Of a DNA stretch of 64,000 nucleotides, positions 9,670-59,913 are shown piece after piece. Under the pieces are notes generated by a model. That model did no database searches, was not told the origin of the DNA, and saw only the letters and a list, made by a program, of their open reading frames with translations. The stretch covers positions 1,612,315 through 1,676,314 of the forward strand of contig OZ244186.1 of the NCBI GenBank assembly GCA_965216625.1, in the 5' to 3' direction. Position 1 is the first letter of the stretch. Each line of letters opens with the position of its first letter. A program made the position numbers and the translations under genes. This DNA is from Alphaproteobacteria bacterium. Its GTDB lineage: Bacteria; Pseudomonadota; Alphaproteobacteria; JABAAW01.

Positions 9670-10849
9670 AGCCGCGCAAAAGGCAGCTTACGATAGGCAA
9701 AGCGTCACCGCCGTCTTGGGGGAAAAGGTGGCACAAGGAGATCTGCACCTCGACCCCGCGCAAGCGAAAGCTGCCAAAATCTTGGATCGGCTGCACGAGC
9801 GATTGATCGAGGAGTACGAGAGGCATCGTTTTTTAAAACGCCTGTTTAAGAGTTGGAACAAGACACGCGACAAAACGTTGCGCGGGCTTTACTTGTGGGG
9901 CAAGCCTGGCAGCGGCAAGAGCTTGCTGATGGACATGTTTTTTGAAAGCATCGAAGCCTCGCCTACGCTGGCATCGTTGACGCGTCGTCGCACGCACTTT
10001 CTGCCTTTTATGGAAGAGACGCACGCGGCGATCGAGCGTCTCAACAACAGCAGTCTGCGCAATTCCCGCGATCCTATAGAGCGGATTGCTAAGCGCGTCG
10101 CCAAGGAGAGCCGTCTGCTTTGTTTCGACGAGTTTATCGTCGAGGACATTGCGGATGCCATGCTCATGGGACGCTTGTTTGCTTCCCTCGCAAAACGAGG
10201 CGTGGTGTTGGTTGCCACCTCCAACTTTGCGCCTGAGGATTTGTACAAGGACGGCTTCAAGCGCGACAACTTCCTCCCTTTCTTGCGGCTCTTGCGGCAG
10301 GCCGTTGTATCGGTGCAAGTCTGTAGCGAGGACGACTACCGCTCGGTCGCGCTGGCAAGGCAGGGGAGAGACTTGTGGTTCAGGGGGAGGGAGGGAGGAA
10401 AACGCATGCACGCTACCTTCGCGCAGTTCGTAGAGACGCAGAAAGAGAATCAGTTTTTGCCGTGCGATGGTCGCCCGATTCTGTTGCGACGCACGGGCGC
10501 GCCTTCTGAAAGGTTGCGAGCGAGGGGGCTTGTGAGGAATGTCGTATGGTGTGGATTTGCCGACTTGTGTCAGACGGCGCGTGGCGTTCGAGATTATAAT
10601 GTCTTGTTGGATTGTTGCGATGTGTTGTTTTTGGCGGATTTCCCTGTTTTGGATGAGACGCAGCGTAATGGCGCGAAGCGTTTTATGCGTTTAGTTGATT
10701 TGTTTTACGAGCGGCGTGCGTTGGTGTTGTGTCATAGTTTTGCTGCTTCGCCGCGTGCGTTGTATAGGGGGGGTAGTCATGCGCGGGAGTTTTTGAGGAC
10801 GGCGTCGCGCTTGGAGGAGATGTTGGCGAGGGCGCACGCTTTGTTGTAG
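9647..10849 (+). CDS. zapE: AFG1-family ATPase ZapE
   Basis: [38 protein letters not shown]. Confidence 0.9.
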
Positions 10850-10919
10850 TTGCGAGGCGCGAGCAAGATGAATCTGTATTTTTCATAGGATCTGTATTTT
10901 TCATGCTAGAATACACAGA

Positions 10920-11522
10920 GTGGATATGTCTTCTATGCAAAATCAACCCCCCAAAGTCGCCATCGTCATGGGTAGTCGCTCAGACTATCCCACAATGAAG
11001 GAAGCCGTCGACATCCTGACACAATTCTCCGTGCCGCACGAAGAGCTCATCCTCTCCGCACACCGCACGCCCGAACGCCTGCGCGACTACGCGCACAACG
11101 CCGAGAAACGCGGCATCCAAACCATCATCGCCGGCGCAGGCGGAGCAGCGCATCTGCCCGGTATGCTCGCCGCCGAAACACCCCTGCCCGTCCTCGGCGT
11201 GCCAATCAAAAGCAACGCCCTGGACGGACTCGACGCGCTGCTCTCCATCGCCCAAATGCCGCGCGGCATACCCGTCGCAACCCTCTCTATCGGAGGAGCC
11301 GCCAACGCCGCCCTCTTCGCCATCGCCGTCTTGGCAGCTGGCGACGCAGAACTCAAACAACGCCTAGTAGAATTCCGAGAAGAACAAACCCAAAACGTAC
11401 CTTGGAAACCCTTCGACCCAAAAGATACAATCAACGGCTCCAAACCAAAAAGTTGGAAGGACAGTAGCAATGACGCAATGCCCAAAGGCACAGAAAATAC
11501 CCGCATTCCTGCGCACGCTTAA
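10920..11522 (+). CDS. purE: N5-CAIR mutase PurE
   Basis: IVMGSRSD, SAHRTP, AGAGGAAHLPG; start may be a few codons downstream. Confidence 0.96.
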   Translation: MDMSSMQNQPPKVAIVMGSRSDYPTMKEAVDILTQFSVPHEELILSAHRTPERLRDYAHNAEKRGIQTIIAGAGGAAHLPGMLAAETPLPVLGVPIKSNALDGLDALLSIAQMPRGIPVATLSIGGAANAALFAIAVLAAGDAELKQRLVEFREEQTQNVPWKPFDPKDTINGSKPKSWKDSSNDAMPKGTENTRIPAHA

Positions 11523-11553
11523 AAACTTTTCAGAACGCTAGTCGACGGCGAAA

Positions 11554-12648
11554 ATGACGACACTCGTTGGCATCGTCGGAGGCGGACAGCTCGCACGCTT
11601 GACCGCGCAAGCCGCAACCCGACTAGGACTGAAGACCGCCGTCTTCGCACCCGAACCCCTCGCGCCCGCTTTCGATACGGCGCAAACAATCTTTCGCGCC
11701 GAATACGACGACACTGCCATGCTCCAACGATTCGCCAAACGTTGCGATGTCGTCACTTGCGAGTTCGAAAATGTTCCCGTCAAAGCCCTCACCACTATCG
11801 AGGCACACGCAAAGCTCTGCCCCTCGGCTGCCGTCTTTGCTTGCGCGCAAGACCGCATTTTGGAAAAATCCTTTTTCGCCAAATGCTCTGTTCCCAGCGT
11901 GGCATGGCAAGCTGTCTCCAACCTCGCTGAGCTGACACGCGCGGTCGAAAAAATCTCGCTGCCCGTCCTGTTGAAACGCGCACGCGGCGGCTACGACGGC
12001 AAAGGACAAATCGAGATCGTCGAACAACGGCAACTCGCAGAAGCTTGGCAGAAAATAGCGATAGGCAAAAACGACACGCGCGCCATCGTCGAGCAAAAAG
12101 CAGACTTAGCATCCGAGTTTTCGCTGATCGCAGCCCGCAACATCGGTGGCGAGTGCGTCCTTTTTCCCGCAACCGAGAATCGTCACGAAGACGGCATTTT
12201 GCACGAAAGCCGCGTTCCCGCAACGCTGGAAGCAACAACCCTGGCACGCGCGCAAGCTTGGACGCGCACCCTAGCGGAGCGATTGGGGGTTGTGGGATTG
12301 CTTGCGGTCGAGTTTTTCCTGACGCGCGAGGGCGAGGTTTTGGCAAACGAAATGGCGCCGCGACCACATAATTCGGGACACTGGACGCTGGACGCAGCCC
12401 CCGTAAGCCAGTTCGAGCAGCTGCTACGCGCCATTCTGAACTGGCCATTGGGACACACTTCTAGCTTTTTACCCGCGCGCATGGTGAATCTGCTTGGCGA
12501 TTCGTGGCGAGACTACCACCGCTTTCTTGCCGACCCCGACGCTGCGCTGCATCTCTATGCAAAGCGCGAGACGCGCAAAGGGCGAAAGATGGGGCATGTG
12601 ACCTTTCGCTCGCTTGCGCACAAAAACTCAAACGCGGCAGAGACCTAA
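11554..12648 (+). CDS. purK: N5-CAIR synthetase PurK
   Basis: GGGQLAR, GYDGKGQ, NEMAPRPHNSGH, RKMGHV. Confidence 0.96.
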   Translation: MTTLVGIVGGGQLARLTAQAATRLGLKTAVFAPEPLAPAFDTAQTIFRAEYDDTAMLQRFAKRCDVVTCEFENVPVKALTTIEAHAKLCPSAAVFACAQDRILEKSFFAKCSVPSVAWQAVSNLAELTRAVEKISLPVLLKRARGGYDGKGQIEIVEQRQLAEAWQKIAIGKNDTRAIVEQKADLASEFSLIAARNIGGECVLFPATENRHEDGILHESRVPATLEATTLARAQAWTRTLAERLGVVGLLAVEFFLTREGEVLANEMAPRPHNSGHWTLDAAPVSQFEQLLRAILNWPLGHTSSFLPARMVNLLGDSWRDYHRFLADPDAALHLYAKRETRKGRKMGHVTFRSLAHKNSNAAET

Positions 12649-12671: not shown

Positions 12672-13490
12672 ATGAGAATCGCTAAGCGCATCGCCGATAG
12701 CGGTGTCGCCTCGAGACGCGAAGCCGAGGCGATGATTTTAAGCGGGCGCGTAAGCGTCGATGGCAAGCCGCTCGGCTCGCCTGCGTACAATGTTGAGGAA
12801 GGGGCTGTGATCACGCTGGACGGAGACCCTCTGCCGCGTTCCAAGCCGCTCCAACTCTACCTATTCTACAAACCGCGCGAGGTTTTGACGGCACGCATCG
12901 ACGAGCGAGGGCAAAGCATCCATCCGACTTACTCGGACGCCTATCCGCAAACCCACTCGTACACCCACACGCGCACCTGCTTGCCCGATCTGCTGCCTCG
13001 CTCGCTTGCGCGTCTGAAGCCTGTAGGAAGGCTCGACTTTTTGTCCGAGGGGCTGCTGCTACTCACGACCTCGGGCAAGCTCGCGCGACATTTTGAGCTG
13101 CCGCAGAACGCGTGGCAACGACGCTATCGCTTGCGCTTGCACGGAATTCAAGAGGGGCAGACGGGCGAGCAGTCACTTTTGCGATTCGAAAATCTCAAAC
13201 GCGGTATCGAGATCGAGGGCGTGCGTTACCGCGCTGTCTCGGTCGTTGTCCAAAAGCCTCAACAGAAACGCGCCACCGAGCGAGCGAACTTTTGGGTAGA
13301 GGCGACCTTGAGCGAGGGCAAAAACCGCGAGCTCAGAAAAATCATGCGAGAGCTCGGATACAATGTTTCGCGCCTGATCAGAACGCACTACGGACCTTTC
13401 GCCTTGGAGGGATTGGCGCAAGGCGCGCATAAGCGTGTTGAGGAAAAAGAGTTGCGCGCGCTGTTGGGGCAGAAGTGGCAGGCTTTCTAG
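12672..13490 (+). CDS. rluB: rRNA pseudouridine synthase (RluB/RsuA family, S4 domain)
   Basis: RIAKRIADSGVASRREAE, VGRLDFLSEGLLLLT, EGKNRELR. Confidence 0.85.
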   Translation: MRIAKRIADSGVASRREAEAMILSGRVSVDGKPLGSPAYNVEEGAVITLDGDPLPRSKPLQLYLFYKPREVLTARIDERGQSIHPTYSDAYPQTHSYTHTRTCLPDLLPRSLARLKPVGRLDFLSEGLLLLTTSGKLARHFELPQNAWQRRYRLRLHGIQEGQTGEQSLLRFENLKRGIEIEGVRYRAVSVVVQKPQQKRATERANFWVEATLSEGKNRELRKIMRELGYNVSRLIRTHYGPFALEGLAQGAHKRVEEKELRALLGQKWQAF

Positions 13491-14203
13491 AGTTGCTACA
13501 CGTGCGACACAAACAACGAGCCTCCGCACTTCGAGCGATCCGCCAAGCCCCGCGCTTGTTGGGAGGCGTGCGACGCGGCTTCGTTTTGCAAACAAGCGCA
13601 AAAGATGGAAAGAGAGAGGGAGAAGGAAAAGAAATGCGTCCGACGGCGGTGCGAGCGCGCAAGGCATTGTTTGACGCGCTGACGCATCGTGCTTCTTTGC
13701 GTGTGAATTTCACGGCAGAAGAGAAATCTTGCGGAGAGAATTCTTGTTGGCTTTTGGATGCTTTTGCCGGGAGCGGTGCTTTGGGGTTGGAGGCGCTCAG
13801 CCGATGGCAAGGATATAACAAAGAACATAACGAAGGGGATAACGAAGGATGCGGTATTTTTTTCGAGGGCGATGCTGTCATGGCGCGAGTGTTGCGTGGC
13901 AATATCGAGCGCAGTGGTTTGGGGGGTCGTGTTGTTTGTCGTGATGCGATGGCAGCTGGCGAAGCAAGGGAACGGGGAGCGATTCGACTAGCTTTCTTTG
14001 ATCCTCCTTACGCGATGTCCGATGAGGAGGCTGCGCGCGCTCCTGCGGCATTTGCGAAGGGGGGATGGTTTAGCGGGGGTGCGCTTGTTGTTTTTCAGCG
14101 TGCGGCGGGGGGGGAGGAGTTGTTGTTGGGGGAGGAGTTTGTTTTGCTGGGCGATTTGCTGGCGTCTTCTGCGCGCTTTTTCTTCTTTCGTTACAAGGGC
14201 TAG
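13475..14203 (+). CDS. rsmD: 16S rRNA m2G966 methyltransferase RsmD
   Basis: MRPTAVRARKALFD, LDAFAGSGALGLEALSR, FFDPPY; start uncertain. Confidence 0.85.
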   Translation: MAGFLELLHVRHKQRASALRAIRQAPRLLGGVRRGFVLQTSAKDGKREGEGKEMRPTAVRARKALFDALTHRASLRVNFTAEEKSCGENSCWLLDAFAGSGALGLEALSRWQGYNKEHNEGDNEGCGIFFEGDAVMARVLRGNIERSGLGGRVVCRDAMAAGEARERGAIRLAFFDPPYAMSDEEAARAPAAFAKGGWFSGGALVVFQRAAGGEELLLGEEFVLLGDLLASSARFFFFRYKG

Positions 14204-14204
14204 A

Positions 14205-14420
14205 GAGTGCGCTAGCGCACGACAAGTCGTGCGCTCCGCTGACGCGGGGTCTTTTGCGGGGGAACTTCGTCCCCCCACACCCCCCATGCGCAAAACTCAC
14301 TTCGCCTTACGGCTCGCTCGTCTTGCGTTTTTCCTTCGTTATAAAAAGCCCGTCACGCGTTCGCACGCGCGCGCATGTTTACGCCCGTAAAGTCTACAAC
14401 GCGCGTCCATGATGTTTGCT
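14205..14420 (+). repeat. Hairpin-rich modular intergenic repeat, copy A
   Basis: Core CCGCTGACGCGGGGTCTTTTGCG at 14236-14258 shared with copies at ~19.8, 23.9, 57.0 and 58.3 kb; downstream part nearly matches the reverse complement of 19740-19833. Confidence 0.85.
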
Positions 14421-14993
14421 ACGCGCGCGCGCATACTCCGCAAGCACGCGCGGATAAAGCCGATGCTCCAACACAAGCACCCGCTCCGCCAAACTCTCAG
14501 GCGAATCGCTTTCGCTAATATCTAACCGCTCCTGCCCCAAAACCTCGCCCCCATCCAACTCCTCCGTCACAACATGAACGCTACACCCATGCTCCCGATA
14601 CCCCCCCTCAAGCGCACGGCGATGCGTCGAAAGCCCACGCAACCTCGGCAATAACGAAGGATGAATGTTGAGAATACAACCCCGCCAACGCGCCACAAAC
14701 CCCCCTGAAAGCAATCGCATAAACCCCGCCAAGCAGACGATCTCTACATCACGCTCCCCCAACATACGATCAACCACCTGCTCGAATTGCTCTTTCCCCA
14801 GCGCGTCGTAGTCGACAACCTCGCTGGGAATGCCTGCCTTTTTGGCGATCTCGCAACCCCCCGCCACACAGTCAGCAATAACCAACACGATAGAGCAAGG
14901 AAACTTCGGCTTTTGAGCCGCCCGTATCAAAGCCCCAAGGTTCGATCCCCGCCCCGAAATCAACACGGCAACGCGACACTTCAAGGCTGACAA
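14394..14993 (-). CDS. purN: Phosphoribosylglycinamide formyltransferase
   Basis: LISGRGSNL, CLAGFMRLL, ILNIHPSLLP, GCSVHVV. Confidence 0.96.
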   Translation of the reverse strand: MSALKCRVAVLISGRGSNLGALIRAAQKPKFPCSIVLVIADCVAGGCEIAKKAGIPSEVVDYDALGKEQFEQVVDRMLGERDVEIVCLAGFMRLLSGGFVARWRGCILNIHPSLLPRLRGLSTHRRALEGGYREHGCSVHVVTEELDGGEVLGQERLDISESDSPESLAERVLVLEHRLYPRVLAEYARARSKHHGRAL

Positions 14994-15004
14994 GTCGTTG
15001 GTCG

Positions 15005-16102
15005 TTATCCGTCCTGAAACTCAACGAAAGGCTTCGCGTTGGAATCGGCATGAGAATTATCATCGCCCATCTTCTCGACAACCCCAACCTCGACGACCTT
15101 CTCTCCCGCTGCCTTCGCCGCCGTAAAAAAATCATCGCGCTTGGCAGGAGGAACAGCGACAACAAGCCCCGCTCCGCAGTTGAAGACACGACGCATCTCA
15201 CTCTCGGCAATGTTGCCCGCCTGCTGCAAGCGCACAAAAACTTCAGGACGCACCACCGCCCGCATATCAACCACCGCTCGCTGCCCGCCTTGCAAGATAC
15301 GCGGCAGATTGTCCTCAATCCCCCCGCCCGTGATGTGCGCGATCCCCGAAACCAACCCTTTTTCGATCCACGGCGCACAAACCTTGTTGTAGATACGCGT
15401 AGGCTTTAACAGCATTTGGATAAAATCTTTGTCCTTTTTAAGCGCGGGATTTTTATCCAACACAGCACGCACGAGCGAAAAACCGTTGGCATGCACACCG
15501 CTGGAGGGTACGACAAAAAGCCTATCGCCTGCCTCTACATGCGCTTTGCGAAAGGAAGCATCGCGCTCTACCGCGCCGAGCACAAATCCTGCGAGGTCGA
15601 AATCTCCTTTAGGGTAGAAGCCCGGCATCTGCGCGGTCTCGCCGCCGACGAGCGCGCACCCCGCCTGCGCGCAACCCTCGGCGATGGATTCCATCACCTG
15701 TTTTTGCAAGGTTGGCGAGATAGAGGCGTAGGCGAAATAATCGAGAAACGCCAATGGCTGCGCACCATCTTTGAGCAGATCGTTTGCGCACATGGCGACC
15801 AAGTCGATGCCTACCCCTTCGCAAGCCTGCGCCTCGATAGCGAGGAGCAACTTCGTGCCGACCCCGTCGCACGCCATGACGAGGATCGGATCGCGGAAAC
15901 CCGCCGCCTTCGGATCAAAGGATGCGCCAAAGCCTCCAAGAGACGACACAGCGCGATCAGAAAACGACGCACCCTCGCTCGTCCTTTGAGCCAGCGGCGC
16001 GAGCGTCTCCTCGACAAAGCGATTGCCTTCCTCGACATCGACCCCCCCATCGTCACGATAATTTAAGCCAGAGCCTAAAGAAGGCTCGTATCTGTCTTCC
16101 AT
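15005..16102 (-). CDS. purM: AIR synthetase
   Basis: DGVGTKL, GIDLVAMCAND, GGETAQMPG, HITGGG. Confidence 0.96.
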   Translation of the reverse strand: MEDRYEPSLGSGLNYRDDGGVDVEEGNRFVEETLAPLAQRTSEGASFSDRAVSSLGGFGASFDPKAAGFRDPILVMACDGVGTKLLLAIEAQACEGVGIDLVAMCANDLLKDGAQPLAFLDYFAYASISPTLQKQVMESIAEGCAQAGCALVGGETAQMPGFYPKGDFDLAGFVLGAVERDASFRKAHVEAGDRLFVVPSSGVHANGFSLVRAVLDKNPALKKDKDFIQMLLKPTRIYNKVCAPWIEKGLVSGIAHITGGGIEDNLPRILQGGQRAVVDMRAVVRPEVFVRLQQAGNIAESEMRRVFNCGAGLVVAVPPAKRDDFFTAAKAAGEKVVEVGVVEKMGDDNSHADSNAKPFVEFQDG

Positions 16103-17606: not shown

Positions 17607-18766
17607 CCGCAAAATCTGAGCGAAGACGTCCTCCCTCAACCGAGTCTCATAAGCCGCGCTGGACGCGCGTCTTGTGGTGGGGCGCGTGGTGCACGAGCCT
17701 GAGTTTGCTCTTCTTGTTATTGGGCAACATTCTTGCGCCCTTCGTCTTCGCCTTCGTGCTGGCGTGGATGCTGAACCCTCTCTGTACGCGGATCGCAAAA
17801 CATTTGACAAGGATCGCAGTACCTCCTTCCCTCTGTCGTGCGCTGGCAGCTTTGCTGTTAACGCTCGTGTTGCTCGCGTTGCTTGTCTTGCTGCTTTCGG
17901 CAACGCTGCCCGCTCTTCTACGCGAGACGCTGCAGCTGGTGGCAGCCTTGCCGAAAATCGCAACAACCCTGCAGGACAAAGCGCAACGACTAGCAGAGAC
18001 AATTCCTTGGGTGAACCAATGGCAGCAAATGCTGCTGCCCGCATGGGAGAGAGCGCGAGACCTCGATTCAAACGCTTTACCGAACTTATCGCCGAACCTT
18101 TCGCAATTGCACAACCTTTCACAACAAGCTTTGCGCCTGACCTCGCAAGCGCTACAGACGCTGGGGCAACAGACCTCGTCGGTCGTGGCGGTGTTGTCGT
18201 GGTTTGCGCTCGTGCCGTTTGCAACCTTCTACATGCTGAAGGATTGGACGCAAGCGATGCAGGCTTGTCGCAAACGCATTCCTCGTGCCGAGCAGCACTT
18301 GCTCGCGCTTTTTCGACGCATCGACGAGACGCTTTCCGCACTGATTCGCGGGCAAGCTGCGGTGCTAGGCACGATGGCACTCTTCTATGCAACCTTGCTC
18401 TCGATCGTGGGATTGCCTTACGGATTTGCGATCGGCATCGCGGCGGGACTGCTGATGGTGTTGCCCTATGTCGGCATGCTGTTGGGGCTAAGCACTGCGC
18501 TTATCGTTGCCTATGTGCAAGGCGGCTTCGACCTGCTCTTCTTGCTGACTGCGCTCGTCTTTATTGTCGGACAATTGCTCGAAAGCTATTTTCTCACGCC
18601 GCGCTGGGTGGGAAAGCGCGTCGGATTGCATCCTCTGTGGGTTATCTTCTTTGTGCTTGCTGGCGGTGAGATTGCCGGCTTTACGGGAATCCTGCTTGCT
18701 TTGCCGATGGGGGCTACGCTACGCGCTATCCTTGCGCACATCGACGAACAGGCTCGCAGCTCTTGA
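17603..18766 (+). CDS. AI-2E family (PerM-like) transporter
   Basis: ILAPFVFAFVLAWMLNP, LESYFLTPRWVG, GLHPLWVI. Confidence 0.9.
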   Translation: MTAKSERRRPPSTESHKPRWTRVLWWGAWCTSLSLLFLLLGNILAPFVFAFVLAWMLNPLCTRIAKHLTRIAVPPSLCRALAALLLTLVLLALLVLLLSATLPALLRETLQLVAALPKIATTLQDKAQRLAETIPWVNQWQQMLLPAWERARDLDSNALPNLSPNLSQLHNLSQQALRLTSQALQTLGQQTSSVVAVLSWFALVPFATFYMLKDWTQAMQACRKRIPRAEQHLLALFRRIDETLSALIRGQAAVLGTMALFYATLLSIVGLPYGFAIGIAAGLLMVLPYVGMLLGLSTALIVAYVQGGFDLLFLLTALVFIVGQLLESYFLTPRWVGKRVGLHPLWVIFFVLAGGEIAGFTGILLALPMGATLRAILAHIDEQARSS

Positions 18767-18823
18767 GCTGGATAACGCTTGATTGGCGCGACGTTTGATT
18801 GACGCAGATTTGAAGGATTGGCG

Positions 18824-19603
18824 ATGGCACAAGGTGCGCAACACAATCTTCCTCTACCTGATACGCGGGGGGAGGGATTTGAGGAAAAACATTTCTTGCG
18901 GTTGCAAGCCAACAGCGAGGCGTTGGATGCATTGCTCGCTTGGCAAACAAGCAGCCACGCTCTCAGTCAACCTTGCAGCCACGCTCTCAGTCAACCTTGC
19001 AGTCAACCTTGCGAACAATCTTCGAGCGTGCCGAGTGCTCCACGCATCGAGGCTTTGTGTGGTGCTGCGAAGTGTGGCAAGTCGCACTTGGGGGAGATAT
19101 GGTGTTCGCGCAATGGTGCGCGTGCGGTCACGCCGTCTTTGTTGGTGCATGGGTTAGGGGAGGTATCTGATGGGGCTTTGTGGCTTGATTTTTCGGCGAG
19201 CGAGGATCCTGGCAAGGTAGGCATGACGCAGGATTTGGAGCGTGCGCTTTACGCGCTTTATAATGGGGTTATGCATAGTGTTGGGGGTTCTTTGTTGATC
19301 ACGGCGCGGAGCGAGCCTAGTCGATGGAGATTTTTGTTAGCGGATTTACGCTCGCGGATGCGTGCGGTTGTTGTGAGGCGCATTGGGGATCCGAGTGATG
19401 GGGACAGCGCGCGATTATTGGAGAGGATTTTCCGCACGCGTCAATTGGAGGTTGATCCGCGTGTTTATGCTTATGTGCATCGTCGTATTGAGCGGAGTTT
19501 TCGGGCGCATCATGCGATTGCGGAGGAGTTGGATACTTTGAGTTTGTTGCATAAGCGAAAGATCACTTTGCCTTTTGTGGCGCGTTATTTCGAGCGCGCG
19601 TAG
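18824..19603 (+). CDS. hda: DnaA regulatory inactivator HdaA
   Basis: N-terminal QHNLPL clamp-binding-like motif, Walker A GAAKCGKSHL, DLRSRM, RRIERSF; position after purM/AI-2E. Confidence 0.85.
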   Translation: MAQGAQHNLPLPDTRGEGFEEKHFLRLQANSEALDALLAWQTSSHALSQPCSHALSQPCSQPCEQSSSVPSAPRIEALCGAAKCGKSHLGEIWCSRNGARAVTPSLLVHGLGEVSDGALWLDFSASEDPGKVGMTQDLERALYALYNGVMHSVGGSLLITARSEPSRWRFLLADLRSRMRAVVVRRIGDPSDGDSARLLERIFRTRQLEVDPRVYAYVHRRIERSFRAHHAIAEELDTLSLLHKRKITLPFVARYFERA

Positions 19604-19912
19604 CACTGCGTGCTTTTTTGCGGGGGGTGTAGGGGTCGCACATGACGGATTTTTTGTATTGACGGGCGCAAAACATCGCGTGCGCTGGCGCACGCGGGAG
19701 GATGTATGGTTGTAAATGACGGATTTTTTGTATTGACGGAGACGCAAGACGAGCGAGCCGTAGGCGTAGCGAGTTTTGCGCATGGGGGGAGGGGGGGGAC
19801 GAAGTCCCCCCGCAAAAGACCCCGCGTCAGCGGGGCGCGTAAGCGCCTTCTACGCATCGCGCGCGTAGCGCGAGATGCGTAGCCTCTTATTCCCAAGCGC
19901 GCGCCCGTTCCC
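19604..19912 (-). repeat. Hairpin-rich modular intergenic repeat, copy B (reverse)
   Basis: CGCAAAAGACCCCGCGTCAGCGG at 19811-19833; GTAGCCTCTTATT near 19880-19892; internal duplicate ATGACGGATTTTTTGTATTGACGG. Confidence 0.85.
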
Positions 19913-19914
19913 CT

Positions 19915-22900
19915 CTAACTACAGCCCGTCGTCTGTCCACAAGTCATACAAGTATAACAAGAACCACTGCGAACAAGCGTGATATGACCACAAAAATCAC
20001 AAGAATCACCAATCCCCTCATCCATCGTCTTTGTCTGTGTCTGTGTCTGTGAAACCAAAACCCCCGCCTCGTTCTCGCCCGCAAGCGCAGTGTGACGCAC
20101 GCCGCTCCCGCCGTTGCCGTTGCCGTTGCCGTTTCCATTACCATTACGTTTCACACTGAGCTCGCGTCGCACATAGCCACTGCTGGTGAGTTTGGTTAAT
20201 CTATCGATAGCCGCCAACGCCTCCTCGCTCAAACGCCCCTCGTCCTTGCCCTTGCCAAGCCCCGTGAAGTCAGCAGCATCAGGCAACTCAATATGTCCCA
20301 AATCATCGCGTCCCAAGTAGCTGATCGCAAGCTCGCGGAAGATGTAATCAAGAATAGAAGTGGCGTTGCGAATCGAAGCGTTCTCACGCACAATGCCGCT
20401 CGGCTCAAAGCGCGTGAAGGTGAAAGCATCGGCAAACTCCCTGAGCGGCACGCCGTATTGCAATCCGATGGAAACAGCAATGGCAAAGTTGTTCATCATA
20501 GAACGAAAAGCCGCCCCCTCCTTATGCATGTCGATGAAGATTTCTCCCAACGAACCATCCTCATACTCGCCCGTATGCAGATAAACCTTATGCCCCCCAA
20601 CAACAGCTTTTTGCGTGTAACTCTTGCGACGCGCGGGCAAGCGGTCGCGCTCGCCTCGTATGCTCGGCTGTGCTTGTGTCGGGATTTTCTTGTCCTCTAC
20701 CGCAAGCGTCTGCTTGTACTGCTCGAAGAGATCGTGCGCGATTTTCTTGGCAATCTCAAGAATGTGCGCCTGCGTCTCGGCTATGGGCGACTCCTCCTTT
20801 TCGCCGCGCGAGGTTGTCAGAGGCTGCGAGAGCTTCGAGCCATCGCGGTAAAGCGCATTGGCTTTAAGTCCCAACTTCCACGATTCCTCAAAGGCTTGTT
20901 GGCAATCTGCAATCGTAGCGTGATGCGGCATGTTGACAGTCTTCGATATAGCACCCGAGATGAAAGGCTGAGCGGCTGCCATCATGCGAATGTGGCTTTT
21001 GCAAGAAAGGCTGCGTTTTCCCTCAATCCCGCAGGAGGTTGCGCAGTCGAAAACGGCGAGGTGTTTCGCTTGCAACAAAGGCACTCCTTCGACGGTGAGC
21101 CTTCCGCAAATCTCCGCGTTGGCATCCGCAATCTCTTGCGCAGAAAACCCAAGCGCCGCCAGCACATCGCCGTTGCGTACAACAAGACGCTGAAACTCCT
21201 TCGCGCCCAGCGTGTGCGGCGTGAAGGCGTTGCGAATGTGGAAGGCACTTTTCAAGGCACGCTCGATGGCTTGGACGGATTTGCTCGCTATTCCTTCGCG
21301 CTCCAAGCGTGCGCGCGACAAGCCCTTGTCGTTCGACGAGAGCTTGCCGCTGCCCACGACGGCTTGCTCGATAGCGAGCGCATTTTCCTCGATGTATCCC
21401 AGCGATCGCAAGGCTGCGGAGAGGGTGGGATTGACAATCTTGAGCGTACCCCCACCGGCGAGTTTCTTCATCTTGACGAGCGCGAAATCGGGCTCAATAC
21501 CCATCGTTGCGCAATCCATGACGATGCCGATCGTGCCTGTCGGGGCGATCACGCTGACTTGGGCGTTGCGAAAGCCGTGCTGCTCGCCCTTCTCGATGAC
21601 ACGATCCCAAACCTCTCGCGCTGCCGTAGCGAGAGCCTTGTCGCGGCACTCTGAACTTTCAAACGCTACGGGAGGACGGCTCAACCCTTCGTAGTCTCCA
21701 TCCTTGCCTTGTGCGGCGCGGCGATGGTTGCGCATGACGCGCAGCATAGGTTCTTTGTTTTCTTGGAAGCGTGCGAAAGCTCCTAGTTCGGCAGCCATCT
21801 CTGCGCTTGTCTCGTAGGCTGTTCCGCTCATCAGCGAGCTTATGGCGGCGCAAAAGCTTCTGCCCTCGCTGCTGTCGTAGGGGACGCCGAAACTCATGAG
21901 CGTGCCGCCCAAGTTGGCGAAGCCAAGTCCGAGCGTGCGAAAGTCGTAGGAGTTGCGTGCGATGGCTTGCGAGGGAAACTGCGCCATAGCGACCGATATT
22001 TCCAAGGCACAAGTCCACAGACGCGTTGCGTGCGTGAAGGCTTCGGTGAGAAATCCTTCGTCGCTGCAGAATTGCAAGAGGTTGAAGGAGGCGAGGTTGC
22101 AAGCCGTGTCGTCGAGAAACATGTATTCCGAGCAAGGGTTCGATGCGTTGATGCGTCCCGAGTTCGGGCAGGTGTGCCACTCGTTGATGGTGGTATCGAA
22201 CTGGATGCCGGGGTCGGCGCTTGCCCATGCGGCGTCGGCGATTTTTGTCCACAGCGTTCGGGCGGAGAGGGTTTTGTAGGTGTTTCCATCGGTGCGTCGG
22301 GTGAGATGCCATGGCTCGTCGCGCTCGACGGCTTGGAGGAATCGCTCGCTGACGCGCACGCTGTTGTTGGCGTTTTGTCCCGATACGGTGAGGTAGGCGT
22401 TGCCCTGCCAGTCTGTATCGAAGGTTGAGAAGGGAATGCGTCGTTCGCCTTGCCGTGCTTTCAGCAAGGCTCTGACGAGAATCGATTCAGGCATACGCTC
22501 GCTACGCGCTGCTCTCAGGGCGGAGGCGAGCAGGGGGTTGGTATGCTCATCGTGGCGTTGTTTTTTCGGGATGTCGTCGCTGTGCGCGGCGTCCAAGATA
22601 TTGTCGAGGTGTTGTTGGCAGCGTTGTGCGCCGACGACCAACGAGGCGACTTTTTGTTCTTCAAGCACTTTCCAATCGATGAATTCCTCGACATCGGGGT
22701 GATCGATATCGACGACGACCATTTTAGCGGCGCGGCGGGTTGTGCCGCCTGACTTGATGGCACCGGCGGCTCGGTCGCCGATCTTGAGAAACGACATGAG
22801 TCCCGACGAGTATCCTCCGCCTGACAGGGGTTCGTTTTCGCCGCGCAGTTGTGAGAAGTTGCTACCTGTTCCTGAGCCGTATTTGAACAGACGGGCTTCG

Positions 22901-23559
22901 CGCACCCATAGATCCATGATACCGCTTTCGCCGACTAGGTCGTCCTTGACCGATTGGATGAAGCAGGCGTGGGGTTGCGGGCGTTCGTATGCCGAGTTCG
23001 CGAGCGCGAGGGTGTCGGTTTTTTCGTCTACATACCAGTGTCCTTGCGGAGGCCCGTCGATTCCGTAGGCCCAATACAATCCTGTATTGAACCATTGGGG
23101 AGAGTTAGGCGAGGCGATTTGTTTAGCGAGCATGTATCGCATTTCGTCAAAGAAGGTTTGTGCGTCTTCTTCGCTATCGAAGTATCCGTTTTTTGCTCCC
23201 CAATATGTCCATGTGCCTGTGATTCGGTCGAAGACTTGTTTGGCGCTCACTTCGCCTGTTGTTTGTTTTTCTTTTGGGAGGGAAGCGAGTTTTTGTGTAT
23301 TTGGGATGGATCGTTCGATGAAGGTTGGGATACCTTTTTCTTGGAGGGGTTGGAGGTATTTGGGGATACCTCGGCGGCGGAAGTATTTTTGCGCGAGGAT
23401 ATCGGTTGCGGTTGAGGACCAGGACTTGGGGACTTCCACATTCTTTTGTTGGAAGACGATATTTCCTGAGGCGTCTTGGATGGAGGCGGAGACGCGGTGG
23501 AAGGGGATGGAGGCGTAGGGGCTGATGCCGGCGCGGGTGTAGTGGCGGGGAATCTTCAA
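19915..23559 (-). CDS. nrdJ: Vitamin B12-dependent (class II) ribonucleotide reductase
   Basis: [34 protein letters not shown]-terminal CxxC pairs; likely TTG start at 23559 (ORF open to 23694). Confidence 0.96.
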
Positions 23560-23665
23560 GGGAGTTTCTTCTGTAGGAGTTAAGGGTGAACAGCTAAAAG
23601 GCAGTATAGCCTCTGATGGACGATGGCGAACTGTCCGCCTAGAGACTCCTTGAAGAGCTGAAATT

Positions 23666-55494: not shown

Positions 55495-56832
55495 ATGGCG
55501 CGTCTTACCTTCCTGTTGTTCGCAAGCTTGCTGTGGTTTGGTGTTATCTCCAAGCCTGTCTCGGCGCAGTTGCGGATCGACATTCAGGACGGAATTTTCC
55601 GTCCGACAAAGCTTGCGATCACCGACATCGTGCGCAAGCGTGCGGGGCGCAAGACGGCGAGTATTGTGCGTAGCGTTTTGGAATCGGATCTGACGCGCGC
55701 GGGCTTGATCGAGATTGTCGAGCGCGATGCGCTCATACAAACGGCCCTTGCTTTGAACGAGACGCCTCCTTTCGCTGTTTTTCGCATTGCGGGTGCGGAT
55801 GCGCTCGCCACGATTTCGCTCAACAAGAAGGGCAGAGTTCTGACGGCGACCTTGCAGATTTGGGATGTCAACCTAGAGCGTCCGCTTGCACGCGAGACGC
55901 TGAGCGCGCGTTCTGAGCGTGTGCTTGCGCATAAAATCGCGGATGCCATCTACAGCCGTCTGACCGGTGAGAAAGGATATTTCAACAGTCGTATTTTGTA
56001 TGTCTCGGAGATCGTGCGCAAGAAGCGGCGTTGGAAGAGGTTGGAGATCATGGATGCGGACGGTGCGAACGTACGCTATCTGACGCGCGGAAGGCGCACT
56101 TTGGTGTTGAACCCGCGTTTTTCGCCTGACGGCAGCAAGGCGATTTATACGGCACTCACGCGCGAGAGGAGTTCGATTCGTCTGATCGATCTGACGCGCA
56201 AGAATAGAGAGCAGATTTTACCTTTGGGAGAGGGACTTGTTTATGCGGCGCGTTTTTCGCCTGACAATCGCGGCATTGTTTATGCGCAGTCTTTGTCGGG
56301 CAACAGCGAGATTTTCACTTACGATCTTGGGACGCAGCGTCGTCGTCGTCTGACGGTGCATCCTTCGATTGACACTTCTCCTAGTTTTTCTCCGGACGGG
56401 GGTTATGTTGCTTTTGTTTCGGATCGCAGTGGCTCGCCGCAGATTTATGTGATGACGCGGCGCGGCGCGCATGTTCAGCGAGTGAGTTTTGACAAGGGAT
56501 CGTTTTCGACGCCGATATGGTCTCCGCGCGGCGATCGGATTGCTTTCACGCGGCAGCTTTACGGCAGGTTTGGGGTAGGTGTGATGCGCACGGATGGCAG
56601 TGATTTGCGCATTCTTGCTGAGGGATTTCGTGTGGAGGGGCCGAGTTGGTCTCCGAACGGCAGGGTATTAGTTTTCTTTAACAAGCAGCGGACGCCTAGG
56701 GGGGCGCGTGCGGGGAGGTCTCGATTGATGACGGTGGATGTGACGGGGCGGTTTTTGCGGGAGTTGCCGACGAGGCATAACGCTTATGACCCTAGTTGGT
56801 CGCACGCACGCGAGGAGACGGAGGGGGAGTAA
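55495..56832 (+). CDS. tolB: TolB
   Basis: AHKIADAIYSRLTGEKGYF, repeated PxFSPDG propeller motifs. Confidence 0.93.
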   Translation: MARLTFLLFASLLWFGVISKPVSAQLRIDIQDGIFRPTKLAITDIVRKRAGRKTASIVRSVLESDLTRAGLIEIVERDALIQTALALNETPPFAVFRIAGADALATISLNKKGRVLTATLQIWDVNLERPLARETLSARSERVLAHKIADAIYSRLTGEKGYFNSRILYVSEIVRKKRRWKRLEIMDADGANVRYLTRGRRTLVLNPRFSPDGSKAIYTALTRERSSIRLIDLTRKNREQILPLGEGLVYAARFSPDNRGIVYAQSLSGNSEIFTYDLGTQRRRRLTVHPSIDTSPSFSPDGGYVAFVSDRSGSPQIYVMTRRGAHVQRVSFDKGSFSTPIWSPRGDRIAFTRQLYGRFGVGVMRTDGSDLRILAEGFRVEGPSWSPNGRVLVFFNKQRTPRGARAGRSRLMTVDVTGRFLRELPTRHNAYDPSWSHAREETEGE

Positions 56833-56849
56833 AGGACGGACGTTTTGCA

Positions 56850-57225
56850 TTGACGGATGCAAAACATCGCGTGCGCTTGTGTGTGTCTGTTGCGTTCGCG
56901 CTTGTGCTTTTTAATGGCACGCGCTTACGCAACAGACTTGCTTTGTATGATGACGGGCGCAAAACATCGCGTGCGTAGCACGCGGGGAGCGCGAGGGAGT
57001 AATCCCTCGCAAAAGACCCCGCGTCAGCGGGGCGCGATAGCGCCTTCTACACACTTTGCGCGAAGCGCAAAGTGTGTAGCCTCTTATTCCAAAGCGCGAG
57101 GCTTTGCCTCGCGCAAGCATGACTCGTAACATGGTAGAGCGTCTTTAACTTTGCCTAGAAGATAGAGCCGAAAAGAACGCACGAAGTGCGTTTTTCTACG
57201 CGCGTAGCGCGTTTCTGCGAGCGAA
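56850..57225 (-). repeat. Hairpin-rich modular intergenic repeat, copy D (reverse)
   Basis: CGCAAAAGACCCCGCGTCAGCGG at 57008-57030, GTAGCCTCTTATTCCAAAGCGCGAGGC, two TGACGG(AT/GC)GCAAAACATCGCG units. Confidence 0.9.
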
Positions 57226-57237
57226 AACTGCCCTAGC

Positions 57238-57645
57238 CTACCCTACGCCCTGCTCCAACAACAAAGTTGCAAGCCCAATCATTGCCGCCATGAGTGTCGC
57301 AATAACAGAAAATCCTATAACCATCATCTGTCGCAAACCCCTCATCTGCTCCTGCATCGCCTGATTCTCCGCCCTCAACGCCTGATTCTCCGCCTTCGTC
57401 TCTGTCCTCAACGCCTGAAACTGTACATCCATCTTCTCTGCTAACCCTCGAATCTCCGCCTTCAGCTCTATCTTTACCGCCTGAGTCTCCGCCTTCGTCG
57501 CAACCCCCCGCATAATCTCGCGCAAAACATCGCACAGCGCACGAGCTTGCCCCTCGTCCCATCCCCCTTCTCGCAATCGGTCGACAACCCGTTGCGTGTC
57601 AAAACTCACCGCTCCATTCGACACTCTTTCTGTTCCTTCCAACAT
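57238..57645 (-). CDS. CCDC90/DUF1640-like coiled-coil membrane protein
   Basis: FDTQRVVDRLREGGWDEGQARAL, VATKAE, heptad repeats, C-terminal TM segment. Confidence 0.75.
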   Translation of the reverse strand: MLEGTERVSNGAVSFDTQRVVDRLREGGWDEGQARALCDVLREIMRGVATKAETQAVKIELKAEIRGLAEKMDVQFQALRTETKAENQALRAENQAMQEQMRGLRQMMVIGFSVIATLMAAMIGLATLLLEQGVG

Positions 57646-57729
57646 GACGACCCTCTCTCTTTTCCAAAGCCCCCAAAACAAATCTCCTGATTCGAACGAT
57701 ACCTACTCCCCGTCCGAAAGTCAAGCCCG

Positions 57730-58470
57730 CACAGGCGCGCTGCGTGCGTTCTTCTTGTTGTTAGGGTGAGCGAAAACGCAATCGCCGTGCCATTGTTACG
57801 AGTCAGCTCGGGGATAAATTCCCCTTGCGCGAGGCAAGCCTCGCGCTTTTCAATAAGAGGCGCACTGCGTGCGGTTCTTTTTGTCGCTAGGGAGAAGAAA
57901 ACAAAATCGCCGTATCGTGTTAAAAGTCAGCTTGCGCGAGGCAAGCCTCGCGCTTTGGAATAAGAGGCTACGCGCTACGCGCGTAGATAAAGCCCGTATC
58001 TGCCTTTGCGATGCGCGCCTCTTAAAAAGCGCAGGCGAGCAAAGGCAGACAAACACAAACTCTCTACCGTGTTGCGAGTCAGCTTGGGGATGAACTCCCC
58101 TTGCGCACGGCAAGCCTCGCGCTTTTGAATAAGAGGCGCGCTTCGTGCGGTTCTTCTTGTCGTTAGGGCGAGGAGAACTCGAATCGCTGTGCCATGTTGC
58201 TAGTCAGTATTGCGCGAGGCAAGCCTCGCGCTTTTGAATAAGAGGCTACGCGCTTCGCGCGTAGATAAAGCGCACTGCGTGCGCTCCGCTGACGCGGAGT
58301 CTTTTGCGAGGGATTACTCCCTCGCGCTCCCGCGCACGCTTCGCGTGCGCATGTTTTGCATCCGTAAAGACTATCCACCCCCCGCGTCATAGCGTACGGT
58401 TTGCCGTGCGCGTCCATGATGTTGCCAGCACGCGATGTTTTGCATCCGTAAAAACTACCCGCGCCCGTCA
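57730..58470 (+). repeat. Hairpin-rich modular intergenic repeat, copy E (expanded)
   Basis: Four near-identical 36-bp units TTGCGCGAGGCAAGCCTCGCGCTTTTGAATAAGAGG at 57825, 57932, 58101 and 58210; core at 58286-58308; two ATGTTTTGCATCCGTAAA units. Confidence 0.9.
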
Positions 58471-58482
58471 CTCACTCGCGCA

Positions 58483-59913
58483 CTACTTGCCAATGCAAAA
58501 GTCGGCAAAAATCCTATCCAACAACGCCTCAATATCACGCCCCCCAACAAGCCTCGCCATCGCCCCCCGCGCATCCCGCAACCCCTCGCCAACAAGTCCC
58601 CAATCCGTTCGCTCCCTCGTCTCCTCCTCCAAAACTCCCCGCAACCCAACGACCGCCTCAAGCAATCCCTCCCTATGACGCGCCCGCGTCGGAGCAACAG
58701 CCGAAAGCATCGATACTCTCTCCCCCAAAGCACACCCCAAAGCCTCAAGAAAAATCCCCATACCATCCCCCGTCCTCGCCGACACAAGAAAAACCCCCGC
58801 AAGTAAAGCGATTTTATTCTTAATTTTATTCTTGGCTTCCTCGTCAAGCAGATCGCTCTTGTTAAAAAGAAGTATGTCAGGCTCAACCCCGTCTTCCTCG
58901 CCCTCCTCCCCCGCCCTGCTCGCCAATGCCCCAAGCGTCTCCCTGCTCGCCAATCGCTCAAGCGTCTTCCCGCACGCCTCCTCGATTCGAACGACAAGAT
59001 CTGCCTCCTTCGCGCTCGCTTGCGCACGACGGATGCCCTCGGCTTCGACCGCATTCTCAGCTTTTCGCAGCCCCGCCGTGTCGAGAAGGTCTACAGGCAA
59101 CGACGCTATCTCTGTGCGCACACGCAACACATCGCGCGTCGTGCCAGGGGTTTCGGCAACAATGGCGACCTCGCTCAAAGCGATGCGATTCAACAACGAC
59201 GACTTCCCCACATTCGGCGCACCCGTAAAAGCAACCGAAAGCCCCGTCCGCACACGCTCCGCCCTCTCTCCAAGCGCGAGATGAGCCTCGATCTGCTCGA
59301 CCAGATTTCGCAACTCAGCGCTTCGCAACTCCGTATCTTGTTGCGACGAAGGGAGGTCTTCGTCGGCAAAATCGATGTTAGCCTCGCACTGACAGAGCAA
59401 AGCAAAAATGCGTTCTTCCCACCCGCCGTAAAGCGTAGCGAGCGCGCCCTCGCTTTGCGCGAACGCCTGCCTGCGCTGCGCCTGCGTCTCGGCAGCGACA
59501 AGGTCCAGCAACCCCTCGGCTTGCGTGAGCGAGATCTTTCCTGCCACGAGCGCACGGCGAGTGAACTCGCCGCGCCCCGCTTGTCGCAAAGCCAGCTGCG
59601 GATGGCTACGCCAAGCGTCCAGCACGGCTTCGACGGCGGCACGCGAGCCGTGGCAGTGGATTTCCACCATGTCCTCGCCGGTGTAGCTTTTGGGCGCGCA
59701 AAAGCGCACGGTCATCGCGCGATCGATCGGCTCAGAGCTAGAGGGATGCTTCAGCAGACGCGGCAACAGCTGCGCGTGCGCTTGCAAGCGTCCCTGCAAA
59801 CATTCGAGCGCGAGAAAAGCCTGCTCGCCCGATACACGCAACACAGAAATAGCAACGCGCCCTGTGCCGCTTGCCAGCGCGTAGATGGTGTCGGCGTTAT
59901 CGGTTGCGGACAT
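58483..59913 (-). CDS. mnmE: tRNA modification GTPase MnmE
   Basis: DTIYALAS, SYTGEDMVE, GAPNVGKSS, GTTRD, DTAG, FCIGK C-terminus. Confidence 0.96.
   Translation of the reverse strand: MSATDNADTIYALASGTGRVAISVLRVSGEQAFLALECLQGRLQAHAQLLPRLLKHPSSSEPIDRAMTVRFCAPKSYTGEDMVEIHCHGSRAAVEAVLDAWRSHPQLALRQAGRGEFTRRALVAGKISLTQAEGLLDLVAAETQAQRRQAFAQSEGALATLYGGWEERIFALLCQCEANIDFADEDLPSSQQDTELRSAELRNLVEQIEAHLALGERAERVRTGLSVAFTGAPNVGKSSLLNRIALSEVAIVAETPGTTRDVLRVRTEIASLPVDLLDTAGLRKAENAVEAEGIRRAQASAKEADLVVRIEEACGKTLERLASRETLGALASRAGEEGEEDGVEPDILLFNKSDLLDEEAKNKIKNKIALLAGVFLVSARTGDGMGIFLEALGCALGERVSMLSAVAPTRARHREGLLEAVVGLRGVLEEETRERTDWGLVGEGLRDARGAMARLVGGRDIEALLDRIFADFCIGK

Follow-up and report, generated by a model that had tools for sequence, protein, structure and literature searches.

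Polar, kilobase-scale G/T skew halos accompany a hairpin-repeat family in an alphaproteobacterial genome

Why should the composition of one DNA strand switch from G/T-rich to C/A-rich at a few short repeats in a bacterial chromosome? The question is raised by a stretch of 64,000 nucleotides (nt), here called the window, at positions 1612315-1676314 of contig OZ244186.1 (our contig C1) in the alphaproteobacterial assembly GCA_965216625.1. This genome, referred to as G000, comprises 1,902,689 bp in one contig with a G+C content of 55% and a marker completeness of 90.7%. An earlier note, made from the letters of the window, had described such flips at five copies (A to E) of a hairpin repeat and had suggested that the strand whose 3' end points at the repeat is repeatedly single-stranded. 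The footprint itself is established by the present analysis, in which the link between flips and repeats at kilobase scale holds genome-wide and is stronger than first reported. Genes were called with our own heuristic based on open reading frames (ORFs) and codon usage, which is imperfect inside the halos and misses genes there.

Strand flips at a family of modular repeats

The repeats found in the window resolve into four conserved linear modules (M1-M4) lying between GC-rich hairpins of variable sequence. At three mismatches or fewer, the genome holds 139 copies of M1, 142 of M2, 297 of M3 and 71 of M4, about 14 of the last being expected by chance by our own calculation. The order of the modules is fixed, (M3)n-M1-(M4)-(M2)n, with 89 architecture variants listed. 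Repeat loci were defined by three or four of these motifs at the same mismatch limit, giving 226 loci overall and 187 when M1-M3 alone are used, and the family is under-annotated as a result. The strand reading from M3 to M2 is here termed the top strand, and its complement is the affected strand on the M2 side.

All eight counts of G+T per 60-nt line in the earlier note proved exact on recount, and extreme lines are rare in the window, with G+T of at least 45 in 10 of 1066 lines and of at most 16 in 19 of 1066. In a 300-nt profile, + strand G+T drops from 0.69 to 0.31 across copy A, from 0.65 to 0.44 across B and from 0.68 to 0.24 across C, and is 0.64 to the left and 0.35 to the right of D/E. 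The genome was scanned by setting 600 nt against 600 nt and recording differences in + strand G+T above 0.2 or 0.25; about 17% of 600-nt segments lie outside the range 0.40-0.60. Flips from G/T-rich to C/A-rich exceeded 0.2 at 137 places compared with 37 of opposite sign, and 0.25 at 80 places compared with 7, the maximum in a locally shuffled genome being 0.22. The repeat loci, 226 in all and together occupying 14% of the genome, have 103 of the 137 G/T-to-C/A flips no more than 500 nt away, and 2 of the 37 opposite ones. Flips without M1-M3 number 35, and because 19 of these hold other sequence repeated five or more times elsewhere (16 carry none), they again indicate that the family is under-annotated.

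When + strand G+T is stacked around all copies of M1, M2 or M3, it reaches 0.54-0.66 on the left and 0.33-0.46 on the right, fading over 1.5-3 kb, compared with 0.49-0.50 at random positions. The mean left-minus-right difference at repeat-bearing intergenic regions is 0.166-0.191, whether the flanking genes are convergent (n = 67), divergent (n = 33) or in either tandem class (n = 45 and 40). At repeat-free intergenic regions more than 2.5 kb from any locus, the corresponding values are 0.047, -0.005, -0.007 and 0.009 (n = 84, 112, 135 and 122). The earlier note had recognised that flips equally common at repeat-free intergenic regions would speak against it; the range found there, -0.007 to 0.047, shows that they are not, and this control rules out flips as a general intergenic property.

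Polarity, shape and mutational character of the halos

The halos are polar with respect to the element. At the 72 loci with the top strand on the + strand, G+T at 100-900 nt is 0.534 on the left (above 0.58 in 19 of 72) and 0.357 on the right (below 0.42 in 63 of 72), and at the 68 loci with the top strand on the - strand it is 0.636 on the left (above 0.58 in 57 of 68) and 0.459 on the right (below 0.42 in 21 of 68). Back-to-back loci (M2-..M3- M3+..M2+; n = 47) have 0.626 on the left and 0.374 on the right, 37 of 47 passing the same threshold on each side; random 800-nt segments (n = 5000) pass in 10% of cases for the left and 13% for the right. The side of the halo matches the orientation of the element in 120 of the 140 single-orientation loci. 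The strong halo thus belongs to the M2 side, where the G/T-rich strand is the complement of the top strand and has its 3' end towards the element; the M3-side halo, borne by the top strand, is weak (55-60%) and flat. The earlier note held the pattern to be the same for either repeat orientation, which is correct for the sign of the flip and incorrect for its amplitude. It also listed the short C-rich gene between D and E as an exception; the gene is indeed C-rich, yet it is no exception, since it is flanked by the M3 ends of D (-) and E (+), where a strong halo would not be expected.

On the M2 side, G+T at fourfold-degenerate sites is 0.79-0.82 at 100-300 nt and declines roughly linearly to 0.50 at 1.9-2.0 kb. 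The M3-side value stays level at 0.57-0.59 as far as about 1.8 kb and has come down to 0.50 at about 3.2 kb. Loci consisting of M3 alone, or lacking M2, have an equally strong halo (0.634 and 0.641). The weak side loses strength as the number of M3 units rises (rho -0.42), and the strong side correlates only weakly with module numbers (rho 0.01-0.22).

Position along the chromosome has no visible influence: M2-side strength is 0.61-0.67 in every one of eight chromosome sectors for both orientations, and + and - loci are interspersed. As skew gave no position for the origin, dependence on the replichore was assessed by these sectors, and none was seen. The position of dnaA is about 250 kb, and no clear origin or terminus skew was seen in G000 before or after masking 3 kb around repeat loci and flips, the cumulative skew range after masking being 0.55 compared with 0.53 for the 95th permutation percentile.

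Several observations indicate that the pattern is mutational. The earlier note had proposed stacking the skew of fourfold sites around the repeats, and the effect is present in this stack for genes on both strands, + strand G+T being 0.62-0.68 in the first kilobase left of a locus and 0.29-0.36 in the 750 nt that follow it on the right. Up to 500 nt to the left, fourfold C drops to 0.204 from a level of about 0.33 and A to 0.149 from about 0.175, G and T increase to 0.404 and 0.243, respectively, and fourfold G+C declines from 0.66 to 0.60. Affected-strand G+T at third and fourfold positions is 0.75 where the gene runs away from the element and 0.80-0.82 where it runs towards it, first and second codon positions shift by about 0.08-0.10, and the M3-side halo is likewise independent of gene orientation. 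Because fourfold and third positions show the largest effect whichever way the gene runs, the pattern is mutational in nature, and codon or amino-acid usage is ruled out as its cause. The earlier view that transcription direction does not explain the flips is borne out by the same orientation-independent G+T. Neighbouring genes point towards the element slightly more often than away (M3 side, 76 towards and 63 away; M2 side, 82 and 57).

The halos reach into the proteins. Together, G, V, F, W, C and L have a share of 0.362 where the coding strand is the G/T-rich one, 0.285 where the coding strand is the other strand and 0.323 far from loci. The share of P, T, H, Q, N and K in the same three settings is 0.164, 0.305 and 0.225.

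Substitutions were polarised at 124 fourfold sites flanking copies A and B at which two relatives, G002 and G003, agree. On the affected strand of G000, 68% of C and 67% of A have changed at these sites compared with 21% of G and 30% of T; the counts are 29 C>T, 13 C>G and 6 A>G against 3 G>A, 0 G>C and 1 T>C. A three-taxon comparison over all aligned sites of eight halo zones assigns to the G000 branch 83 C>T v 29 G>A, 39 A>G v 16 T>C and 13 C>G v 2 G>C, and the rest of the region, used as a control, is symmetric (31 v 44, 21 v 20 and 6 v 10). On the branch of the sister genome G004, the asymmetry is reversed (36 C>T v 78 G>A), and G000 is more skewed than G004 in every halo class genome-wide; G004 may be relaxing or losing the activity, or parsimony may be misled by reversals. 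In the net flow between G000 and G004, C>G is also asymmetric (323 v 161) and A>G is as prominent as C>T. The C>T and A>G changes that the earlier note predicted on the strand with its 3' end at the element are thus borne out by polarised counts, with C>G in addition. No 5' or 3' context preference was found, the share of changed C being 0.070-0.091 over the four 5' bases in unpolarised G004-to-G000 differences, and a sequence-specific deaminase was set aside as a cause, as no enzyme-like context was seen.

Among 20 related genomes searched for the modules, the family is restricted to the genus, with 54 copies of M2 in G004, six in each of the fragmented assemblies G002 and G003 and 0-1 elsewhere; other modules also match G005. 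The G004 data comprise 1.6 Mb of its contig C2, with the last 25 kb of C2 and three other contigs left out. They hold 115 loci of the same polarity: right G+T is below 0.42 in 43 of 49 + loci, left G+T is above 0.58 in 40 of 57 - loci and mixed loci pass in 8/9 and 7/9 cases, compared with background rates of 12.6% and 9.5%. An alignment of the two genomes covers 72% of G000 at 91.4% identity. Of the 187 loci of G000, 65 are shared with G004, 38 correspond to orthologous sites without M1-M3, 64 are unaligned and 20 are non-syntenic.

The comparison with outgroups was made over window positions 8000-27900. G002 is syntenic there; its rsmD and purN are 32 nt apart and its hda and nrdJ 53 nt, and it has neither element nor flip at these two sites; between nrdJ and NDUFA12 it has both a flip and an element remnant. 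Third-position G+T of the genes concerned is given in Table 1, and nrdJ profiles are flat in other genera. These comparisons show that the halos are derived states which appeared on lineages with the element at the site. The purN C-terminus of G001 reads 0.71 in a genome where no M2 copy was found, an exception to the link between element and halo.

Table 1. Third-position G+T, coding strand, of genes flanking copies A to C in G000 and six relatives
Gene region	G000	G004	G002	G003	G005	G006	G001
rsmD C-terminus	0.71	0.70	0.36	0.24	0.52	0.34	0.27
purN C-terminus	0.77	0.75	0.50	0.60	0.48	0.48	0.71
hda C-terminus	0.81	0.80	0.44	0.45	0.54	0.51	
nrdJ C-terminus	0.64	0.56	0.36	0.36	0.44	0.46	
nrdJ N-terminus	0.26	0.27	0.24	0.33		0.51	
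NDUFA12	0.22	0.24	0.21	0.20		0.63	

How the repeats might produce the halos

The elements are strongly structured when folded as single-stranded DNA. Copy B is predicted to form a chain of hairpins in both senses, with -69 kcal/mol for the top sense (z score -4.15) and -75.5 kcal/mol for the bottom sense (z score -4.37) relative to shuffled sequences. Hairpin stems vary among copies and remain complementary, as seen in aligned M3 rows: copy D has a perfect 15-bp stem and copy B a different one, each bounded by CTAC...GTAG, and five of seven aligned M3 hairpins from the window start with CTAC and end with GTAG. Covariation was judged by reading these rows, as the variable-length hairpins of the seven M3 modules did not align in RNAalifold. 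An Rfam search at the elements matched no family.

The two strands of the element are not equivalent. A G-tract beside M1 is always on the bottom strand, the top-strand pattern C5-7 N3 C4+ having 132 matches (some overlapping) and the G-run version none. Window examples of this run after M1 lie at 14259-14283 and 19750-19790. The bottom strand is predicted to be slightly more stable as single-stranded DNA in 91 of 112 loci. A consensus scan for intrinsic terminators matches the M1 and M2 hairpins in the top sense, with 34 sites in the region compared with 16.2 +/- 4.4 in shuffles, and the elements may terminate transcripts that run from M3 to M2. T-runs after M1 or M2 hairpins in the top sense are found in the window at 23872-23887, 23920-23936 and 24177-24193 on the + strand and at 19696-19677 on the - strand.

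Orientation changes inside loci bring M3 ends face to face in 47 cases and M2 ends in 2. Consecutive loci less than 1.5 kb apart in G000 are M3-to-M3 in 12 of 12 pairs and M2-to-M2 in 0 of 12; at 1.5-3 kb there are 15 M3-M3, 7 M2-M2 and 9 tandem pairs, and beyond 3 kb M2-M2 predominates. Close pairs in G004 comprise 10 M3-M3, 0 M2-M2 and 1 tandem. Because close pairs stand M3-to-M3, strong halos almost never face each other at short range. The segments enclosed by 27 close pairs hold one to four ORFs.

Given the established G/T excess of leading strands and of non-template strands, forks or transcription moving outward from the element would enrich G and T on the strand opposite to the one observed. 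We consider it likely that the element causes the halo. The reading we favour, at a probability of roughly 0.5, is that each halo is the trace of a gap in one strand that opens again and again, its 3' end lying in the element and the complementary strand being left exposed. The element would repeatedly create a gapped duplex with the 3' end inside it, and the gap, up to about 2 kb long, would extend beyond the M2 end. The exposed strand could then suffer deamination of cytosine and adenine, and bypass of abasic sites could give C>G. Such a gap might originate where synthesis copying the bottom strand is blocked by the structure of that strand and resumes at the next primer, or by a nick in the top strand at the M2 end followed by 5'-to-3' resection. 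A strand-specific block would give the same gap in either replichore, because a template strand is always copied in one direction. The weak halo on the M3 side might reflect occasional unwinding of the stalled 3'-ended strand. We favour a gapped duplex because it fits the polarity, the independence of position, the linear decay over about 2 kb, the substitution spectrum and the avoidance of facing M2 ends, which would be expected if facing gaps on opposite strands were harmful. The asymmetry of C>G argues for lesions in single-stranded DNA.

Other routes to a G/T-rich strand have to be weighed against this one. The earlier note was right that the G/T-rich strand has its 3' end at the element, and it envisaged a two-sided resected break or converging forks; both predict equal halos on the two sides, whereas single-orientation copies show one strong and one weak. 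Two-ended double-strand breaks at the hairpins, for instance through cleavage by a hairpin nuclease, with resection in the 5'-to-3' direction on both sides and deamination of the 3' tails, would give the right sign on each side. A spectrum of C>T, C>G and A>G suits such damage to single-stranded DNA, and the back-to-back inverted loci, which are the best substrates for a cruciform or hairpin, do show two strong halos. We nevertheless regard these breaks as unlikely, as one halo declines linearly to 2 kb and the other is flat to 3 kb at asymmetric single-orientation loci, and there is no obvious reason why hairpin or cruciform cleavage should depend on module order. The asymmetry itself could come from a polar barrier of the Ter type, at which forks pause at the M2 face and an Okazaki-sized stretch of lagging-strand template behind them stays single-stranded. 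The polar halo of about 2 kb is near the size of an Okazaki fragment, its sign is the one that a fork coming in at the M2 face would leave, and the elements occur in opposed pairs. Forks normally pass any one site of a bacterial chromosome in a single direction, however, and halos are equal for both orientations in all eight sectors, at about 84-88% of loci of either orientation. Barriers facing outward on both sides of a pair would moreover shut forks out of the enclosed segment, which makes a barrier of this kind rather improbable.

Additional damage to single-stranded DNA would not be needed if a strand-specific nick misdirected mismatch repair, or led to repeated long-patch error-prone resynthesis, so that errors and deaminations of one strand were fixed within the excision tract. 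MutS is present, excision tracts of 1-2 kb match the length of the halo, the prominence of A>G beside C>T in the G000/G004 net flow resembles mismatch-repair spectra, and divergence in halos is not raised. C:C and G:G mismatches are poor substrates for mismatch repair, and C>G is clearly asymmetric (13 v 0, 13 v 2 and 323 v 161); with no nickase candidate within the four families searched either, we hold this explanation to be improbable, although the presence of MutS keeps it in contention. Cause and effect might also be exchanged, the flips being made by something else that is fixed at the sites, with repeats inserting or persisting there in a set orientation. In favour of this are halos that remain in G004 where the element is absent, the turnover of element content and orientation at fixed sites whose halos stay, and 16 flips without a repeat; the flip in the window at 10850-10920 has none either. 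Set against it are the absence of any other common feature found at flips, the agreement between halo side and element orientation (120/140) and the outgroups that have neither element nor halo at copies A and B; slow decay of the halo would make persistence after loss expected, and several apparently empty sites hold remnants. We see little likelihood in this reversal. Transcription-associated mutagenesis would make the non-template strand of incoming transcripts G/T-rich if the modules act as intrinsic terminators, which they resemble in the T-runs after the M1 and M2 hairpins; the flat 3-kb halo on the M3 side has the sign expected for transcripts that end at the element, and neighbouring genes point towards it slightly more often. 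The M2-side halo is, however, nearly as strong for genes running away (0.75 vs 0.80-0.82), which is the case at 41% of loci, the M3-side halo is independent of gene orientation, and outward transcription from the element gives the opposite sign, leaving transcription a very remote candidate. An artefact of codon usage, amino-acid composition, horizontally acquired DNA or assembly error is scarcely credible. The signal peaks at fourfold and third positions for genes of either orientation, halos lie in conserved housekeeping genes and recur at orthologous sites of the independently assembled G004, G002 and G003, and G000 is a single contig.

Several observations weigh against a recurrent gap caused by the element. 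The evidence for such a gap is one of composition and substitutions. Parsimony is crude at near-saturated sites, where reversals in G004 can mimic forward changes in G000. Independence of fork direction is inferred solely from the uniformity of sectors, and the origin was not located from skew. The difference in single-strand stability is small (a mean of 1.7 of about 53 kcal/mol), and the copies are not independent. Flips without any repeat make up 16 of the 137, and some M3 sides are strong, namely to the left of A and over 2 kb of nrdJ to the left of C. The 38 G004 sites without the element keep the halo, with an affected-strand G+T of 0.607 compared with 0.629 in G000, as do 11 flanks at which the gap in G004 is 60 nt or less (0.616 in G004, 0.637 in G000), although several of the empty sites hold element remnants or sit inside larger arrays. 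From this comparison with G004, a halo may last longer than the element at its site or may be older than it. At copies B and C, the orientation of the element differs between G000 and G004 and the halos do not, so elements turn over or invert in place faster than halos decay. Divergence between G000 and G004 in halos is 0.084-0.090, not above the genome mean of 0.086, a weak test as little rise is expected at compositional equilibrium.

The sites of copies B and C in G004 (G004:C2, about 527.7 kb and about 531.7 kb) carry a repeat in the opposite orientation with different modules.

Candidate enzymes were sought by profile. Y1_Tnp/RAYT (PF01797) has no match in the single-contig G000, the same profile matching 6 of 14 control genomes, and rve, DDE_Tnp_1 and the TnpB zinc-ribbon have none in G000 either. 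There is accordingly no nickase or transposase candidate within these four families; IS110, IS256, IS91, Tn3, HNH and GIY-YIG were not searched, and neither were SbcCD, AddAB, RecJ and Tus. Among repair genes, G000 has two matches to the UDG family and a MutS, none of which discriminates between the models; endonuclease V was not found in G000.

None of the closest known systems shows the whole pattern. REP/BIME, REPIN and rhizobial RIME-type repeats are alike in that short, GC-rich, imperfect palindromes occur by the hundred, joined by conserved linkers in a set order of modules; they are intergenic, enriched between convergent genes and built of varying yet complementary stems. A GTAG-type hairpin foot is diagnostic of REP. 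G000 differs from REP/BIME-RAYT systems in having no Y1/RAYT gene (PF01797) and no Rfam match, and to our knowledge no flanking compositional halo has been described for the REP/BIME, REPIN or RIME families. Replication strand skew likewise enriches G relative to C and T relative to A on the strand held to be single-stranded for longer, but it has two chromosome-scale switches, whereas G000 has 137 local ones (and 37 opposite) that fade in 2-3 kb, are anchored to repeats, polar and independent of sector, and reach a fourfold G+T of up to 0.8. The strand gradient of vertebrate mitochondria combines C>T and A>G on one strand, graded from a fixed point; here there are some 190 short gradients with C>G added, and the fixed point is a repeat instead of a replication origin.

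Kataegis in yeast and human tumours, which arises in single-stranded DNA where breaks are resected or forks uncoupled, resembles the halos in its kilobase-scale, strand-coordinated C>T and C>G beside a discontinuity in the DNA and in the switch of strand, here seen across back-to-back loci. The halos differ from it in being a lineage-fixed steady state instead of somatic clusters, without TpC-type context, in the equal importance of A>G and in the one-sidedness of single arms. The polar footprint recalls Ter/Tus and RTP barriers, and structure-induced post-replicative gaps at template G-quadruplexes, in its orientation or strand dependence, its opposed pairs and a G-tract on the affected strand. 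Unlike them, the present sites are dispersed by the hundred round the chromosome, have a G-tract that is not the canonical four-run motif and are known from their composition. The earlier note knew of no named system with such a pattern at kilobase scale, and we found no precedent in the literature either: full-text sources, which did not include subscription journals, did not describe, for any prokaryote, polar skew halos of kilobase scale that are anchored to repeats. Nor are such halos described in passages of a 2023 review of strand asymmetry (PMC10030826).

A bolder proposal, which we offer tentatively and think less probable than the gap itself, is that the repeats form a new class of cis-acting element, either a strand-specific, orientation-dependent interrupter of synthesis or a programmed nick site. 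About 190 stretches of 2 kb would then be recurrently single-stranded, with pairs facing outward to keep gaps from ever opposing one another, in a form of kataegis on an evolutionary scale that recodes neighbouring proteins and erases replication skew. If the halos record gaps, the genome would serve as a natural map of the sites and strands at which a bacterial chromosome becomes exposed, and hairpin repeats would be tied to a concrete DNA transaction, a long-open question for REP-like elements. Whatever its origin, the local mutation pressure is very strong (fourfold G+T of 0.8) and changes protein composition. Skew-based prediction of the origin fails in this genome, gene calling by codon usage misses genes in halos, and compositional tests for foreign DNA as well as phylogenies of halo genes are biased.

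Features of the window

The repeats and halos of the window are listed in Table 2. According to Pfam, the genes around them encode AFG1/ZapE, PurE, an RsmD-like methyltransferase, PurN, Hda, a class II ribonucleotide reductase, NDUFA12, TolB, a CCDC90-like protein and MnmE.

Table 2. Repeat copies, halos and related features, in window coordinates
Feature	Position	Strand	Remarks
Flip without repeat modules	10400..11900	.	0.71 to 0.39 at AFG1/zapE-purE spacer 10850-10919
Halo left of A	13200..14203	+	+ strand G/T-rich, 300-nt G+T up to 0.69; rsmD C-terminal third positions 0.71
Repeat copy A	14204..14440	+	Top sense on +; M1 14236, M4 14401; between rsmD-like and purN
Halo right of A, M2-side direction	14441..15400	-	+ strand G+T 0.31; purN C-terminal third positions 0.77, coding sense
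Strong M2-side halo of B, hda 3' half	18400..19603	+	+ strand G+T 0.62-0.65; third positions 0.81
Repeat copy B	19604..19914	-	Top sense on -; M2 19662, M1 19811, M3 19881; between hda and nrdJ
Weak M3-side halo of B, nrdJ 3' end	19915..20900	-	Third positions 0.64 vs 0.36 in G002, G003
M3-side halo of C, nrdJ 5' 2 kb	21700..23694	+	Coding-strand third-position G+T 0.16-0.36; common to G004, G002, G003, not G006
Repeat copy C	23695..24215	+	Top sense on +; M3 23790, M1 23874, M2 x4 at 23934-24208, M4 x2; between nrdJ and NDUFA12
Strong M2-side halo of C, NDUFA12 and next gene	24216..25300	-	+ strand G+T 0.24 at 24401
Strong M2-side halo of D, tolB 3' end	55900..56832	+	+ strand G+T 0.56-0.64
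Repeat copy D	56833..57232	-	Top sense on -; M2 x2, M1, M3; after tolB
Short CCDC90-like gene between M3 ends of D and E	57238..57681	-	Pfam; pair at 1669166, gap 745; no strong halo expected
Repeat copy E	57790..58482	+	Top sense on +; M3 x4, M1, M2 x2; before mnmE
Strong M2-side halo of E, mnmE 3' end	58483..59400	-	+ strand G+T 0.35-0.43

At the spacer between AFG1/zapE and purE, G004 has a different spacer of 209 nt and G002 a weaker flip. The nrdJ match in G004 (G004:C2:527852-531637, in two pieces) holds one in-frame TGA, and so do those in G008 and G015, one each. The CCDC90-like gene between D and E contains periodic repeats of 21 and 12 nt at 57337-57499, and a 12-nt periodic repeat at 17119-17262, within an ORF of 464 amino acids (16212-17606), encodes an acidic low-complexity stretch. 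A direct repeat of 94 nt, 91% identical, occurs at 27360-27453 and 28298-28391, 938 nt apart. Finally, three tandem paralogous ORFs of 558, 560 and 570 amino acids lie on the - strand at 33678-38724, repeating every 1.67 kb or so, their nucleotide sequences being 60-86% identical between copies.

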